From NCBI GenBank assembly GCA_005191425.1, contig SUPR01000134.1, positions 1 through 7,538 on the forward strand: a DNA stretch of 7,538 bases, read 5' to 3'. Shown piece by piece: positions 502 to 7,538 of the stretch. The position numbers and the translations under genes are program-made. Position 1 is the stretch's first letter. Each line of letters opens with the position of its first letter. This stretch comes from Candidatus Helarchaeota ASGARD archaeon Hel_GB_B (GTDB taxonomy: Archaea; Asgardarchaeota; Lokiarchaeia; Helarchaeales; HEL-GB-B). The notes beneath the pieces are model-generated. The model did not search any database, was not told the origin of the DNA, and worked only from the letters and a program-made list of their open reading frames with translations.

Positions 502-1050
502 TTATATTTTAAATACTTCACGTATTCCTAATTTAAAAGCTAATAAATTGTCTTCTAAATATTTACTTTTACTCTCAGATTTTATTATTTTTATAATAGC
601 GTCCTCATTTATAGAATTAACAATTCTAGATAATGCACCCAGATAGCTCATATTTAAAGATGTGGGATATTTTATTGATTTTAAAATCTTTTTTTCGGGA
701 ATTAAATAAATTTTATTTTCATTAAATTGTTGCATTAATTTCTCATCGAAAAATGATTCACCCATTATAATCGTACATTTTTCATTAATTTGATTTTTAT
801 ATTTATTCAGCGCATCTCTTGCCATAATTATATAATAATCAAATTTATTAATATTTAATTCATAAATTTGTTCATTTTTATTCTCAGAAAAAATTATATC
901 AGCTGAAACTATTCCTTTACGTACTTCTGCTCCATATGTTTGTGTTTGAACCACATTTAAGCCCAATTCAAATATACTTTTTGCTAAAATAATTCCACTT
1001 TTTATCGCTCCTTGACCACCTATTCCAGTTATTCTAATTGTTTTAATCAT
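502..1050 (-). CDS. korC: 2-oxoacid:ferredoxin oxidoreductase gamma subunit
   Basis: N-terminal GIGGQG and QTQTYGAEVRKG (cf. QTQSYGPEARGG), late NMSYLGAL and NLLAFKLG motifs, 182 aa. A GAGGT RBS lies upstream (complement of acctc, 1060-1064). Substrate specificity cannot be assigned from sequence. Confidence 0.9.
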   Translation of the reverse strand: MIKTIRITGIGGQGAIKSGIILAKSIFELGLNVVQTQTYGAEVRKGIVSADIIFSENKNEQIYELNINKFDYYIIMARDALNKYKNQINEKCTIIMGESFFDEKLMQQFNENKIYLIPEKKILKSIKYPTSLNMSYLGALSRIVNSINEDAIIKIIKSESKSKYLEDNLLAFKLGIREVFKI

Positions 1051-1109
1051 TGATAAAATACCTCATAATACCTTAACTTATTTATAATAAAATATTTTTT
1101 AATTTAAAT

Positions 1110-1901
1110 TTATGAATGCATATTTTTATTATTTAAAATGTTATTCCTTAATTTATTTAATTGCTCACAAAATTCCGGTAAGTTCTTTTTTACAAAAATA
1201 CCAAATTTTAATTTATCATCTTTATTTTGGACCAATTTTTTGAAATAACGATAATAATCAATTATAGAAAGATTATTTTTACGTCCATATTCTGTAGGGC
1301 ATGGTGATAAAATTTCTACAAAAGAAAAACCTTTATGTATTATTGCATCTTTCATTATTTTTATTAATTTTCTTGGCTGAAATACAGTCCACCTTGCAAT
1401 GAAAGTACCACCAGCTGCCTCAACTAATTTACATAAATCAAATGGCTTTTCTGGATTTCCAAATGGTGTTGTGTCAGTTATGGCATTTTTAGGAGTGGTA
1501 GGAGCAACTTGACCGCCTGTCATCCCATAAATCATGTTATTAACTAGGAAAACCGTAATATCGATATTTCTTCTTGCTGCATGTATTAAATGGTTTCCAC
1601 CAATTCCTGCACCATCTCCATCACCTGTAAAAACTATTACAGTTAAGTTGTTATTAAAAACTTTCGCACCTGTAGCGTAAGCAATAGCTCTTCCATGAAC
1701 TGTATGAAATGTATCCAAATTTAAATATGGGCTTGGGATCCATGATGAACAGCCTATTCCTGAAACACATAAATAGGAATCTAAATCGATATCTAATTGA
1801 TCTATTGCTCTAATAAAACAATTTAATATGATCCCATTCCCACATCCTGAACAAAATTTATGTGGTAAATATCTTAAATATTTATTCATTATTTTTGACA
1901 T
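1110..1901 (-). CDS. korB: 2-oxoacid:ferredoxin oxidoreductase beta subunit (TPP, [4Fe-4S])
   Basis: FCSGCG, SGIGCS, HGRA, the TPP motif GDGD...NN, YGMTGGQVAPTT and ILSPCPT. The start overlaps the alpha stop; the alternative ATG at 1889-1887 gives a TAATG overlap. Confidence 0.93.
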   Translation of the reverse strand: MSKIMNKYLRYLPHKFCSGCGNGIILNCFIRAIDQLDIDLDSYLCVSGIGCSSWIPSPYLNLDTFHTVHGRAIAYATGAKVFNNNLTVIVFTGDGDGAGIGGNHLIHAARRNIDITVFLVNNMIYGMTGGQVAPTTPKNAITDTTPFGNPEKPFDLCKLVEAAGGTFIARWTVFQPRKLIKIMKDAIIHKGFSFVEILSPCPTEYGRKNNLSIIDYYRYFKKLVQNKDDKLKFGIFVKKNLPEFCEQLNKLRNNILNNKNMHS

Positions 1902-3022
1902 TTTAAATACCTTAAAATATTTTCTTTTATAAAATTTATACTAGGTATAACTCCACCTAATTTTTTTATACTAAATATCCTCCTTGGTCTTAAAACTCTT
2001 TGTACTTCCCGTACAGCCATTCCGTTGTTCATTTCTACAACAAAAATATCTGAAATATCTTCATGTACTAAATTATTCAAAATTTCATCTGGAAATGGCC
2101 AAATTGTTTTTAATTTAATAAAACCAATCTTTATTCCCTCCTGCCTTAAACTTAAAACTGCACCTAATGAGGGCCTTGCAGAAACACCCCACGAAATTAT
2201 TAATGATGTAGAATCTTCAATATGATGATATTCTAAATCTATTATATCTTTAGCTTGAGAAATTTTTGAACATATACGATTAATTGTTGATTCATGAACT
2301 TTTGGGTCATAATTTCTTTTACCTGAAATTTCATGAGCAGAACCGGTTATTAATAACTTTTTACCTTCCCCAAAATGAGCCATTGGTAATATATTATCAA
2401 TTAAATCGCTTGAGTTTATTCTATTATTTTTTAAACATTTTCGATTTATTATTTCAATTGCGCCCTTCTCTGGAATTATTAACTGCTCTCTAAAATGTCC
2501 AATAGCACCATCTAATAGGAGAATTACAGGTACTCTATATTTTTCTGATAAATTGAATGATCGAACAGTTAATTCAAATGTTTCTTGAACTGAACTAGGA
2601 CTCAAAACTATTGATTCATAATCACCATGAGCACCATATCTTGATTGATAAAATTCTTGTTGTGCAGGATAAGTAGCTTGTCCTGTTGATGGTCCAGATC
2701 TTTGTACGACAACAATGACAATAGGTGTTTCTGTATGATAAGCATAGGAAATGTTCTCTTGCATTAAACTGAAACCTGGGCCCGATGTTGCTGTCATTGC
2801 TTTTGCCCCTGCCCATGATGCTCCAATAATAGCTGCTGACGAAGCAATTTCATCCTCCATCTGTAAAAAATAACCACCATTCTCAGGTAAGTGTTTTGCC
2901 ATATATTCTGTAATTTCTGTTGCGGGTGTTATTGGATATCCCGCAAAAAAATTACATCCTGCATATAAAGCGCCTTCTGCGCATGCTATATCTCCTAATA
3001 CAAAATATCTTCCCGGCTTCAA
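1889..3022 (-). CDS. korA: 2-oxoacid:ferredoxin oxidoreductase alpha subunit (short, four-subunit type)
   Basis: FAGYPITP, QMEDEIAS, ATSGPGFSLMQE, QRSGPSTG, 377 aa with no fused gamma domain. TTG start with GAGG 7 nt upstream (complement 3030-3033). Confidence 0.93.
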   Translation of the reverse strand: MKPGRYFVLGDIACAEGALYAGCNFFAGYPITPATEITEYMAKHLPENGGYFLQMEDEIASSAAIIGASWAGAKAMTATSGPGFSLMQENISYAYHTETPIVIVVVQRSGPSTGQATYPAQQEFYQSRYGAHGDYESIVLSPSSVQETFELTVRSFNLSEKYRVPVILLLDGAIGHFREQLIIPEKGAIEIINRKCLKNNRINSSDLIDNILPMAHFGEGKKLLITGSAHEISGKRNYDPKVHESTINRICSKISQAKDIIDLEYHHIEDSTSLIISWGVSARPSLGAVLSLRQEGIKIGFIKLKTIWPFPDEILNNLVHEDISDIFVVEMNNGMAVREVQRVLRPRRIFSIKKLGGVIPSINFIKENILRYLKCQK

Positions 3023-3798: not shown

Positions 3799-5751
3799 AT
3801 GTCTGAAGAAATCCGCATAGGTGTTTATGTTTGTGCTTGAGGCGTTAATATCGGTGGCGTTGTCGATGTAGAAGCTGTTGCAGAGTTTGCCAAAACCTTA
3901 CCAGGTGTTGTATTAGCTAAGACAAGTGCATTTACATGCTCAGAGCCAGGACAGGAAATGATCGCTGAAGATATAGTAAATCATAACTTAAATAGAGTTG
4001 TTGTAGGTGCATGTACACCAAAAATTCATGAACCTACATATAGAGCACTTGTAGAATCAGCTGGTCTAAGTCCATACTATTTTCAAATGGTAAATTTAAG
4101 AGAACATGTATCTTTTGTTAATCCATCATCAAAAGAGGAAGCAACTGAAAAAGCAAAAGCTTTAATTGCAGCTGGTGTTGAAAGAGCTCTTATTTTAGAT
4201 GATGTGCCTCTTAAAGAAATAGACGTCGTGAATCAAGTTTTAGTAATAGGAGCTGGTATTGGCGGTATTAGTGCATCACTTGCCATAGCTAACGCAGGTA
4301 TTAAAACATATCTTGTAGATTCTTTACCTAGCATTGGCGGAAAAATGGCACAGTTAGATAGAGTATTCCCAACTGATGATTGCGCTATTTGAATATTGGC
4401 TCCAAAAATGGTCGAAGCTTCAAGACATCCAAACATAGAGCTTAGAACTTATTGTGAAATTAAAGATATCAAAGGCAGCGCAGGACAATATAAAGTTACT
4501 ATCGAACATAAACCTACATATGTTGATTGGGATAAATGTACTGGTTGCGGTCGATGTATGGAGAAATGTCCAGTATTGGTTCCTAATGAATTTAACTATG
4601 GTTTAGGAACAAGAAAAGCTATAAACATTATTCATCCAAATGCAGTTCCTAAGAAAGCTTACATTGATATGGACGCGTGTATTAAATGTAAACAATGTCA
4701 AAAGAATTGTCTTGCTGATGCTATCAATTATGATATGGAACCTTGGTATGAAGAAATTGAAGTTGGTGCAATTGTAATTGCAACAGGATATGAAACTTAC
4801 GATATTGAAAAACATGGCGATTTCGGATATGGAAAATACTATAATGTTCTTACTCAAATTGAATTAGAAAGATTAATAAGTCCGACTGGACCAACAGGTG
4901 GCCACTTAAAAAGAATATCAGATGGTAAACGTCCAAAACGAATAGCAATGATTCAATGCGTTGGATCAAGGGATGTAAAAACCAATGCTTATTGTTCAGG
5001 TGGAGTTTGCTGTCTTGTTGCTATGAAAAATGCACAATTATTAATACAAGAATACGATGATATTGAAGTATCAATTTTCTATATTGATATAAGAACAACT
5101 TCTAAGGAAGAAGAAGAGTATTATGCAAGAATTCGTGGAGAATTTCCACAAATACGCTTTATTAAAGGAAAGGTTGCAGAAGTTAGAGAGGATCCAGAAA
5201 CGCATAATCTTATTGTTAGAAGCGAAGATGTTATCAGTGGTAAAATAATCAGTCAAGAATTTGATATGGTAGTTCTATCAACAGCAATGGTACCTCATCC
5301 AAAATCTAAACAAATTATGGATTTATTAGGGCTAGACAAAGCGCCATCAGGATTCTTTAAAGAAATCCATACATGTTTAAATCCCGTAGAAACAAAAGCA
5401 AGTGGAATATATATCGGTGGTGCCTGTAGAAATCCAATGGCAGTACCATATACAGTTTCAACTGCAAGAGCTGCAGCTGCAATGGCAATCGATTTTGTAT
5501 CAGCTGGGAAATTCAGACTAGAACTTATAAATCCAGTAATCGATGAATCATTATGTATAGGCTGTGGTACCTGCGAAAGAAATTGCTCATTTAATGCTAT
5601 AAAAATCGGAGATGATGGTATAGCCCATTTAAATGAAATAGCTTGCAAGGGTTGTGGCGTCTGTGCTTCAAGTTGTCCAGTAAAAGCTATATCATTTAGA
5701 TATTATCGTGATGAACAATTATTAAACGAAATTGATGCTATTATATTATAA
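3799..5751 (+). CDS. hdrA: Heterodisulfide reductase subunit A, selenoprotein with two Sec (U14, U198), 650 aa
   Basis: One continuous frame interrupted only by TGA 3838-3840 (MSEEIRIGVYVCA-U-GVNIGG, cf. VCHCGxNI) and TGA 4390-4392 (FPTDDCAI-U-ILAPKM, the CxxU site of methanococcal HdrA). Also FAD motif GAGIGG, inserted ferredoxin (CTGCGRC, CIKCKQC), ELER, QCVGSR...YCSGGVCC...AMKN and a C-terminal ferredoxin (CIGCGTC, CKGCGVC). Ends in TAA. Joins track ORFs 3958..4392 and 4396..5751. Confidence 0.96.
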
Positions 5752-5833
5752 CACGCCTATTTGATGACTACAATGATTAAAAGTTTAAAATCATTGTAGA
5801 AAAAAGGGTTTATGCGACCCTTAAGGCGTGTTA
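5749..5833 (+). ncRNA. SECIS element of hdrA (eukaryote-like core, variant) within a three-way junction
   Basis: ATGA 5764-5767; helix CTACAATGATT 5768-5778 / AATCATTGTAG 5789-5799; loop starting AAAA; GA 5799-5800; hairpin AAGGGT/ACCCTT 5804-5822; outer helix TAACACGCCT 5749-5758 / AGGCGTGTTA 5824-5833. Confidence 0.8.
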
Positions 5834-5942
5834 ATATCGAATTATAAATTTTATTCCCCTCAATACTAAAATAATGTTTAAAATTAACAATACTGTTAAT
5901 AAAATATATGTAAATATTAAAAAGCCCTAAATGTGAATTAAA

Positions 5943-6353
5943 ATGGAAGAACATTTTAGGGTAGTTGCATTTGCCTGTAATAAATGAGGTTATGGGGCTG
6001 CAGACCTCACAGGAACTACCCGAAATAAATATCCTACAGATATTAGGATTATTAGAGTAAGATGCACAGGACGTATCGATGCTTATCATCTACTTCATGC
6101 ATTTAGAAGTGGCGCGGATGCAGTAATGGTAGTATCTTGACATATCGGTGAATGTGATTTCAATAATGGTAATATAAAAGCATTATCTAGAGTTAACTTC
6201 GTTAAAAGAGTATTAGACAAAATTGGACTTGACGGAAGTAGAGTAAATTTATACGAATGTGGTGCAGCAGAATTCAATATATTCTTAGAATCAGTAGCTC
6301 ATACAATGAAAATCTTGAAAAAAATTGGCCCCAATCCACTTAAAAAAATGTAA
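5943..6353 (+). CDS. mvhD: MvhD/VhuD [2Fe-2S] subunit, selenoprotein with two Sec (U15, U66), 136 aa
   Basis: MEEHFRVVAFACNK-U-GYGAADLTGTTRNKYPTDIRIIRVRCTGRID...GADAVMVVS-U-HIGECDFNNGN...KIGPNPLKKM*. The TGAs at 5985-5987 and 6138-6140 match the two Sec positions of methanococcal VhuD (CxxU-GYGAAD and xU-xxG-E/D-C). Absent from the ORF track. Confidence 0.95.
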
Positions 6354-6424
6354 ATTTGAATGAGTCTCGAATGTAAAGATTTAAATTCGAGATGACAGCC
6401 CTTGAAAGCGAAGGGCTAAATTTA
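6351..6424 (+). ncRNA. SECIS element of mvhD/vhuD (eukaryote-like AUGA-AAA-GA) within a three-way junction
   Basis: ATGA 6360-6363; helix GTCTCGAAT 6364-6372 / ATTCGAGAT 6385-6393; loop containing AAA 6375-6377; GA 6394-6395; hairpin AGCCCTT/AAGGGCT 6397-6417; outer helix TAAATTT 6351-6357 / AAATTTA 6418-6424. Confidence 0.88.
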
Positions 6425-6471: not shown

Positions 6472-7538
6472 ATGATAGAACTAACAAAAGAGATTATGAA
6501 TGCTATAACAGAAGTAAGCGCTGGTAGTTTATTTGTAAGGTCTCTATTAGAAAATCATGATACAATAATAAATGCTGAAAAATTAAACGAAAATAAATTA
6601 GAAATAATTCTTGATAAATTAATGGATATAGAAGTAGAAAAATTCAGGATACTTTTATATATATTATCTACGGGTAGCGCAACTGTTTCTCAAATTGAAA
6701 ATGACTTGAAAATATCAAAATTCAATATTTTAAAAAATATATTTACATTACAGAATGAAGGATGGCTTGAAATCAGAGATATCAATGAATTAAATTATGG
6801 AATATCGTTGAAAGTTGATGTCTTAAATGATAAAATAAATGTTAATTTAATAGCACCATGGAATATAAGAACAGTATATGACCCAATAAAAATTATCGTT
6901 GAAAATGAATTTTGTTGTTTATGCGGTGCCTGTAAAACGGTATGTCCAGTTAATGCGATAGAGATTATTGATGATAAACCAGTTATTGACGAAGAAAAAT
7001 GTATTCATTGTGGACTTTGTAATTATCATTGTCCAAGAACTTTTCTACCACTGAATGTGTTAAAAGAATTTTCGACTGGAGATAATTATAATCCATATCA
7101 ACTCTTGAGTACCCAACCATTTGGTCCATGCAAAATAATTAAATCTGCACAAACTACGGATGATAAAATTAAACAAGTATGCCAAGATGGAGGAATGGTA
7201 ACTACTTTTATCAAATATCTTTTCGATAAAAAACTAATAGATGGTGCAGTTGTAACAAAAAGAAAACCAGATTCATGGGATACTCAGCCAGTTGTAGTTA
7301 CAAGATATGAAAGTCTATTAGAAACATCTGGTACTAAATATGCAGTCTCGCCAAATTTGATAGCATTAGAGCAAGCAGCTGAATTAGGATGTAAAAAATT
7401 AGCTTTTATTGGTACTCCATGTCAAGTTCAAGCAATTAGAAAATATCAAGTATATTCTAATATTTATCAGGAGATCTGGGGATCTATAGAATATGTAATT
7501 GGAATTTTTTGCATGGAATCATTCTCATATCCTAATGT
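6472..7538 (+). CDS. 3'-truncated FrhB/FdhB/FpoF-family (F420-binding flavoprotein) protein with N-terminal winged-HTH and 2x[4Fe-4S] ferredoxin domains
   Basis: The frame is open from ATG 6472 to the window end, so the track omits it. It contains RILLYILSTGSATVSQIENDLKISKFNILKNIFTLQNEGWLEI (wHTH-like), CCLCGACKTVCP (from 6913), CIHCGLCNYHCP (from 7000), and the FrhB motifs QDGGMVT, IDGAVV, SGTKY, FIGTPCQ and IGIFCMESF. Confidence 0.9.
   Translation, partial: MIELTKEIMNAITEVSAGSLFVRSLLENHDTIINAEKLNENKLEIILDKLMDIEVEKFRILLYILSTGSATVSQIENDLKISKFNILKNIFTLQNEGWLEIRDINELNYGISLKVDVLNDKINVNLIAPWNIRTVYDPIKIIVENEFCCLCGACKTVCPVNAIEIIDDKPVIDEEKCIHCGLCNYHCPRTFLPLNVLKEFSTGDNYNPYQLLSTQPFGPCKIIKSAQTTDDKIKQVCQDGGMVTTFIKYLFDKKLIDGAVVTKRKPDSWDTQPVVVTRYESLLETSGTKYAVSPNLIALEQAAELGCKKLAFIGTPCQVQAIRKYQVYSNIYQEIWGSIEYVIGIFCMESFSYPN

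Follow-up and report, generated by a model that had tools for sequence, protein, structure and literature searches.

The two predicted selenocysteine insertion sequence (SECIS) elements behind the hdrA and mvhD genes of Candidatus Helarchaeota archaeon Hel_GB_B, in a 7,538-nucleotide (nt) stretch of contig SUPR01000134.1 (assembly GCA_005191425.1; the whole stretch is hereafter the window), are each built as a three-way junction, in which a closing helix (P1), the SECIS stem with its kink-turn core and upper stem (helix II), and an accessory hairpin on the 3′ side (P3) come together. There is little doubt that the junction is a real structure under selection, and the core sequence and its placement indicate that the hdrA and mvhD structures are very probably genuine selenocysteine (Sec) insertion signals and functional SECIS elements. 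The core is that of the published Asgard lokiSECIS, the eSECIS-like type I kink-turn element, and the two elements do not form a separate SECIS class. A three-way junction of this kind seems to be how elements of the Asgard eSECIS-like class, including the type II selD elements, are normally built in full. Judged against the published texts, the branch with its closing helix is apparently a structural variant not yet described, or else a more complete picture, of a known kind of element.

The evidence for the junction is of three kinds. First, unconstrained RNAfold predictions of 5749–5833 and 6351–6424 give the three-way junction as the minimum free energy (MFE) structure in both cases (Table 1); none of 200 shuffled sequences was as stable as either element, an inverted-repeat scan recovers every arm of both, and eight elements of hdrA and mvhD orthologues are all junctions in unconstrained folding. 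An initial annotation of this DNA had proposed an outer helix of 10 base pairs (bp) behind hdrA and 7 bp behind mvhD with the TAA stop codon as its first three bases, a short helix with a 3-nt bulge and GA leading into the SECIS helix, a second, 3′-side hairpin with a U-A closed loop and opposite G/C stem polarity in the two elements, and a mvhD junction with no unpaired base. All of this is seen in both elements, the outer helices appearing in the unconstrained folds, and the structural selection on the branch that it suggested is borne out by the folding z scores (Table 1) and by the comparisons that follow.

Secondly, when the SECIS stem is held fixed, P1 plus exactly one hairpin is found in 51/62 elements (82%) compared to 14% with the flanks shuffled, and stricter criteria give the junction in 40/62 compared to 3%. 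In structural alignment A4 (35 elements) 95.4% of cells are paired and 17 of 18 pairs have compensatory changes, with slid controls at or below 58%, and in A5 (42 elements) the values are 94.2% and 20 of 20 (including all six pairs of P1 and all four of P3), with slid controls at or below 51%; in neither did any of 500 shuffles score as high, and the pair counts overstate independence, the alignments being fitted to the model and the sequences kin. MFE folds made without reference to the model and plain counts by position are in line with these model-based counts. The pair under the bulge (−1b/−1n), which belongs to the short helix of the initial annotation, is canonical in 51/51 elements (GC 23, CG 17, AU 7) and covaries, switching by gene family from G-C (mvhD) to C-G (selD) and A-U (other genes), and the next pair (−2b/−2n) is Watson-Crick in 40/51. 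The spacing from P3 to P1 is 0 nt in 38/51 elements and at most 1 nt in 45/51.

Thirdly, the junction accompanies genes with in-frame TGA codons. Eighteen mvhD homologues without an internal in-frame TGA (L065–L082) have neither the core nor a covariance-model match, and two homologues with one TGA have the element. In other genomes 29 model matches were checked, and each is found at the 3′ end of an open reading frame (ORF) with an in-frame TGA, mostly mvhD, with one selD-like and one 49-residue vhuU-like gene. The accessory hairpin is present in the 3′ regions of other selenoprotein genes and absent behind the Cys-type homologues, and the covariance-model search recovers the junction, all of which supports the view of the initial annotation that the elements, with their published core and their position behind in-frame-UGA genes, are SECIS. 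The refuting outcomes that the initial annotation had named did not turn up in these comparisons. We note that the vhuU-like ORF (L109, G023:C674; ...CYDCULSCAAH...) terminates at the UGA of a junction-type SECIS.

The loop of P3 is also conserved. It contains GC in 44/51 elements (background 13%) and GCR in 37/51 (background 5%), usually as U-GCR-A, and this GC(R) motif recurs over gene families, both SECIS types and classes. The 7-nt loop ending in GCG that was described initially holds for this order; among relatives the loops range from 3–8 nt and retain GC(R). Both pairs at the base of P3 are C-G in almost all type I elements of A5 (39/41 and 36/41). A reading of the loop as a GNRA tetraloop (GCAA or GCGA) was dropped, as it breaks closing pairs in many elements; a triloop or pentaloop reading retains more pairs.

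The junction is widespread. The Hel_GB_B genome has at least nine such elements. The junction is found behind every Sec-type hdrA and mvhD gene whose 3′ region was examined (two elements each on the window contig, C41 in our numbering, C26 and C167, one behind hdrA on C122 and one behind mvhD on C118), and a further one is at the end of C121. This last (L002:2255–2329, minus strand) is a complete junction-type SECIS 66 nt from the contig end, with the gene that it served cut off. In about 40 relatives the junction occurs behind mvhD (in almost all of 29 downstream regions), hdrA, selD and the vhuU-like gene, and it is also present in another class of the phylum. The hdrA orthologues of four relatives in the same order have their own element, in which P1 and P3 covary, and the selD elements have a type II apical ministem and every stem sequence different, yet share the same P1, short C-stem and P3. 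The 3′ end of the selD gene of Hel_GB_B itself falls outside its contig, and the selD elements were studied in the relatives. Covariance-model matches in a sample of the phylum cover 25/25 genomes of family f4, 5/5 of f19, 3/6 of f22, 2/5 of f11 and 1/3 of f16; the other families searched gave no match, the filters being strict and the genomes incomplete, so that the survey shows presence and not absence. Family f19 belongs to another class with higher G+C, and its matched mvhD elements have the same layout with a U-GCG-A P3 loop.

The searches differ in reach. The mvhD element of the window is matched by model R2 at E 2.2e-10, while R2 at E ≤ 0.001 misses the window hdrA element, other hdrA elements and the type II selD elements, which were handled by constrained folding; the search with model R1 reached only 150 of 12371 candidates in the Hel_GB_B genome, three real elements among them, so that an element missing from it says little. 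A loose descriptor with an upstream-UGA filter, tried over the whole genome as a selenoprotein finder, was too noisy, only perfect-stem matches being credible; low-energy junction-like matches with imperfect stems were seen on C157 (minus strand, reverse-complement coordinate 13942), C98 (25656) and C139 (45064).

Some relatives depart from the standard core. Three hdrA elements of family f2 (L005 G004, L007 G002, L008 G006) have AUGC...AA for AUGA...AA (C at 2b); they retain P1, helix II and a P3 with a GCG or GCA loop, and may be degenerate or have a variant core. In relative G005 (L009) the hdrA and mvhD 3′ ends have AAAA/AAUU in place of AUGA/GA and the 3-nt bulge is gone; these elements lie behind in-frame-TGA genes and retain P1, helix II and P3 (loop AAUGCAA). 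Some type II selD elements of family f4 (L048–L050, L056) have UUGA as the 5′ core, not AUGA or GUGA.

In the window itself the core fits the published class closely. Both elements have [A/G]UGA directly ahead of the upper stem (AUGA at 5764–5767 and 6360–6363), [G/A]A past it (AA 5800–5801 in hdrA, GA 6394–6395 in mvhD), adenines opening the apical loop, and a location just 3′ of an in-frame-UGA gene. The upper stems and loops (11 bp and 10 nt in hdrA; 8 bp plus a G.U pair and 12 nt in mvhD) are inside the limits of the model of Huang 2024 (7–15 bp, 8–20 nt), and the hdrA stem exceeds the 9 bp of the set of Mariotti 2016 (9 bp, 11 nt). As far as the texts of these two studies describe it (PMC4989117, PMC11227280), the Asgard eSECIS-like type I element has the same AUGA, GA/AA, upper stem (8–11 bp) and loop with an A-rich start (10–12 nt), at the same site directly 3′ of hdrA/vhuD-type selenoprotein genes; the SECIS features of the locus match those published for Lokiarchaeia-type Asgard archaea. 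The text of PMC11227280 also lists an AUGA_AA variant for hdrA and frhD in Lokiarchaeia, and the undescribed SECIS class that the initial annotation had considered is not borne out.

P1 is known in outline, being the 'lower stem' of the Huang model (PMC11227280, text). The published description runs from this lower stem through internal loop, quartet and upper stem to the apical loop, and its text makes no mention of the 3′-side hairpin, the junction or the GC(R) motif. A branched Asgard SECIS is likewise undescribed in the texts of Mariotti 2016 (PMC4989117), Huang 2024 (PMC11227280), Sun 2021, Peiter & Rother 2025 and a 2026 review (PMC13188914), and full-text searching of the literature on SECIS and three-way junctions, and on Asgard SECIS from 2024 on, turned up no branched form. 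One difference concerns gene assignment: the text of Mariotti 2016 (PMC4989117) describes one SECIS common to each HdrA-VhuD pair, behind vhuD, whereas hdrA here and in same-order relatives (and on C26, C167 and C122 of this genome) has its own element. A covariance-model scan of the window against Rfam at E ≤ 10 gave no SECIS family and only three chance snoRNA-like matches; that existing tools miss Asgard SECIS is reported in the text of PMC4989117.

Other SECIS types are more distant. Eukaryotic types I and II, kink-turns bound by SBP2 or L30, have the same AUGA...GA quartet, unpaired apical adenines, succession of helix I, internal loop and helix II, and 3′ location, but the elements here have a shorter helix II, abut the stop codon rather than lying far into the 3′ untranslated region, and have an extra hairpin off the 3′ side of the internal loop; furthermore the Rfam models do not match, and no SBP2 gene was found in this genome or is reported in the text of PMC4989117. 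The SECIS of Methanococcales and Methanopyrus (GAA_A bulge) shares the position 3′ of archaeal selenoprotein genes, whereas the core here is a standard kink-turn, and neither a GAA/A bulge between GC-clamped stems nor an Rfam match was found in the hdrA or mvhD element. Methanococcal VhuD elements with AUGA...GAC/AAC plus a short extra stem are described in the text of Mariotti 2016, and 'GAC' is conserved here too.

The core is a kink-turn sequence, with a canonical stem, a 3-nt bulge (AAU, GAU or UAU), then G.A and next to it A.G or A.A. The mvhD element has the full pattern, G6362 and A6363 facing G6394 and A6395; in hdrA, G5766 and A5767 face A5800 and A5801, with A.A at 2b.2n. The C-stem is only 1–3 bp and is seated directly on the three-way junction, and 3b.3n is often U.U or A-U/Watson-Crick in the element set. 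Kink-turns with U.U or Watson-Crick 3b.3n usually require protein to fold, and since such pairs are common in the set, L7Ae or a relative would be expected on the core. Archaeal box C/D and other L7Ae-bound kink-turns have the same C-stem, 3-nt bulge and tandem sheared G.A, but the elements here are part of an mRNA, rest on a junction that includes a conserved side hairpin, and have no guide or box D. A structural parallel is the k-junction of the thiamine pyrophosphate (TPP) riboswitch, a kink-turn with a third helix in the non-bulged strand, coaxial on the C helix (Wang, Daldrop, Huang & Lilley 2014, PMC4005666). The SECIS elements come close to this as putative kink-turns extended to three-way junctions through a third helix in the non-bulged strand, which lies 0–1 nt from the C helix and would permit coaxial stacking. 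They differ from the k-junction in that 1–3 C-stem pairs (one in mvhD) part the G.A pairs from the branch point, whereas the k-junction third helix is directly opposite the loop, and in biological role.

The position of the stop codon is less uniform than the window suggests. The outer helix anchored on the stop, as initially described, stands for the two elements here and roughly for hdrA orthologues; elsewhere the stop can be as much as 11 nt ahead of P1 or as deep as 15 nt inside the element. The UGA of the AUGA core itself ends the frame of many f4 and f19 mvhD genes and of the mvhD gene on C118 (L001:4813–4881, minus strand), the 5′ strand of P1 then belonging to the coding part. As a general rule no gap separates stop and element, and in all cases the stop is inside the element or next to it. 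P1 and much of the core would be melted by a ribosome at the stop, and therefore a UGA placed there would not be recoded, and the element would have to refold in every round.

How the junction might work can be outlined in a model that we favour tentatively, as something close to an even prospect. P3 would stack coaxially on P1, like the third helix of the k-junction, and the P1/P3 stack would provide a rigid base for the very short C side, from which helix II would project at a fixed angle. A protein of the L7Ae family probably occupies the kink-turn, and the Sec-decoding machinery (archaeal SelB or else an adaptor) would make a second contact, specific to SECIS, with the (U)GC(R) loop of P3; this would set SECIS kink-turns apart from the many other kink-turns of the cell. 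Since the stop falls at the start of the element or within it, the terminating ribosome would have to melt P1 and the core, while P3, further downstream, would remain folded and could seed refolding ahead of the following ribosome.

Several points weigh against this model. The Sec-insertion function, the kinked geometry, the coaxial stacking and the protein contact are all inferred. Two L7Ae-family genes are all that a PF01248 search of the genome gave, and none resembling SBP2 was found, so that the genome offers no candidate partner for P3. The P3 motif itself varies, with 7/51 elements lacking GC, the spread of loop lengths already noted and flips of stem polarity, and part of it could reflect shared ancestry or loop stability. 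The covariation counts carry the overstated independence given above, and the membership of the hdrA and type II selD elements rests on descriptor and folding and not on R2. Finally, the literature comparison covers text, and the branch might already be drawn in supplementary figures to Mariotti 2016 or Huang 2024.

The strongest rival, which we regard as rather unlikely, is that P1 and P3 are a thermodynamic scaffold only, insulating the SECIS from AT-rich flanks and allowing quick refolding, with GC(R) closing a stable small loop. This fits an element that overlaps the stop and is melted in each translation round, and it fits P3 as the most G+C-rich local hairpin in a genome of 28% G+C, with stems that change freely, even in polarity, and loops of no fixed length. 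A pure clamp, however, needs no GC(R) loop that recurs in three gene families, in both SECIS types and in two or more classes, nor near-invariant C-G in the first two P3 pairs of type I elements, and the kink-turn-less elements of G005 retain P3 and its loop. Because of this recurrence of the loop, the near-invariant basal pairs and the retention of P1 and P3 without AUGA/GA in G005, P3 may quite possibly be a specific recognition site and more than a scaffold. The G005 elements would also be explained by a stronger version, which we consider doubtful, in which P3 is the primary Asgard-specific determinant for the archaeal SECIS reader (SelB or an adaptor) and the kink-turn is secondary, eukaryotic SECIS being derived through loss of P3 once SBP2 took over.

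A regulatory switch, in which pairing of the stop region in P1 would tie termination, or the translation of the following gene, to whether the SECIS is folded, is improbable. In its favour, the stop is part of P1, adjoins it or coincides with the core UGA, and 48 nt separate the mvhD element from the start of the FrhB/FdhB-like gene and about 110 nt the hdrA element from the mvhD start; but homologous elements differ by more than 25 nt in where the stop falls with respect to P1, a poor fit to a precise switch, and no alternative conserved pairing was seen in MFE or centroid structures. Even less credible is P3 as a generic transcription terminator or mRNA 3′-end stability hairpin that merely adjoins the SECIS. 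Family f4 does have a run of 4–5 U past the 3′ strand of P1, resembling an archaeal terminator, but P3 sits inside the helix P1, the 3′ strand of which comes after it; no + strand terminator-like site (G+C-rich hairpin plus U run) is found at P3 or P1 of either element; and the element is absent behind Cys-type homologues of the same gene family, all model matches following UGA-containing ORFs. A 229-nt metatranscriptome contig spans 5784–6012, from inside the hdrA element into mvhD, which counts weakly against a terminator and was not taken as evidence of expression; such contigs show neither ends, strand nor level, and DNA carry-over is possible. The prospect that the branch is a chance product or folding-program artefact in AT-rich sequence is negligible and is computationally refuted by the covariation and shuffle controls. 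Loose descriptors do give a 'junction' in 74/4250 random core-like genome matches, but this background of 1.7% compares to 82% of real elements, every modelled pair has compensatory changes, and the structure is kept across classes.

The window comes from a 3.5 Mb assembly and has three + strand genes: hdrA, a mvhD/vhuD/frhD-type gene, and a gene for an FrhB/FdhB-like protein (Table 1). The hdrA frame is open only with read-through of both TGA codons; its product has Fer4, Pyr_redox_2 and FAD_oxidored domains, and its paralogues in the genome share the same two TGA. The mvhD homologues in 40 relatives have the same two in-frame TGA as the window gene, and selD in the relatives has one, which argues that the lineage uses Sec. 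The ATG at 5943 is the likelier start of mvhD, as the ATG at 5931 has TGA as codon 2, and the gene therefore has two Sec codons, not three. The NiFe hydrogenase large subunits of this genome have no in-frame TGA. On the minus strand, at 502–3022, is a divergent 2-oxoacid:ferredoxin oxidoreductase cluster (POR gamma, a TPP-binding beta subunit and POR_N alpha).

Table 1. Genes and SECIS components in the window (positions counted from its first letter).
Feature	Position	Strand	Remarks
hdrA (650 aa)	3799–5751	+	Sec codons TGA 3838–3840 (U14) and 4390–4392 (U198); stop TAA 5749–5751
hdrA SECIS domain, whole three-way junction	5749–5833	+	MFE −33.4 kcal/mol, z −7.0; orthologues fold alike
hdrA P1, 5′ strand	5749–5758	+	pairs with 5824–5833 (10 bp); first three bases are the TAA stop; covaries among hdrA orthologues
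hdrA kink-turn, bulged strand	5761–5767	+	C-stem tt5761–62; loop g5763 a5764 t5765; G5766 (1b), A5767 (2b)
hdrA helix II	5768–5799	+	5768–5778 with 5789–5799, 11 bp, 100% complementary
hdrA apical loop	5779–5788	+	AAAAGUUUAA, 10 nt, starts AAAAG
hdrA non-bulged strand	5800–5803	+	A5800 (2n), A5801 (1n), the AUGA_AA variant; aa5802–03 pair with tt5761–62
hdrA P3 accessory hairpin	5804–5822	+	5804–5809 with 5817–5822; loop UUAUGCG 5810–5816
hdrA P1, 3′ strand	5824–5833	+	RNAfold MFE and inverted-repeat scan
mvhD/vhuD/frhD-type gene, FlpD domain	5943–6353	+	PF02662, E 4.9e-41; Sec codons TGA 5985–5987 and 6138–6140; stop TAA 6351–6353
mvhD SECIS domain, whole three-way junction	6351–6424	+	−22.2 kcal/mol, z −4.8; zero unpaired junction bases
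mvhD P1, 5′ strand	6351–6357	+	pairs with 6418–6424 (7 bp); opens with the TAA stop
mvhD kink-turn, bulged strand	6358–6363	+	g6358 (−1b) pairs with c6396; loop a6359 a6360 t6361; G6362 (1b), A6363 (2b)
mvhD helix II	6364–6393	+	g6364.t6393 plus 6365–6372 with 6385–6392
mvhD apical loop	6373–6384	+	12 nt, GUAAAG..., A run offset by 2 nt
mvhD non-bulged strand	6394–6396	+	G6394 (2n), A6395 (1n), c6396 (−1n), the 'GAC' conserved in alignment A4
mvhD P3 accessory hairpin	6397–6417	+	6397–6403 with 6411–6417; loop GAAAGCG 6404–6410
mvhD P1, 3′ strand	6418–6424	+	RNAfold MFE and inverted-repeat scan
FrhB/FdhB-like protein gene, 2x[4Fe-4S] domain	6472–7536	+	extends beyond the window

A third arm is relevant to the question of how, in archaea, a SECIS 3′ of the gene is linked to the ribosome. 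The Asgard elements are the presumed evolutionary bridge to eukaryotic SECIS, and models of them so far comprise a stem, an internal loop and another stem only; the junction refines the view of what the eukaryotic SECIS was simplified from. A covarying third arm with a conserved loop is also a mutable handle for pull-downs and reporters, and bears on the design of heterologous tests; one lokiarchaeal SECIS was reported to be non-functional in M. maripaludis (PMC11881835), and for such a construct it may matter whether or not the full junction was carried. The junction model should improve the finding of Asgard selenoprotein genes, as all checked matches are UGA-containing genes, and the overlap of stop and element suggests why a UGA inside its own SECIS can safely end a selenoprotein gene.

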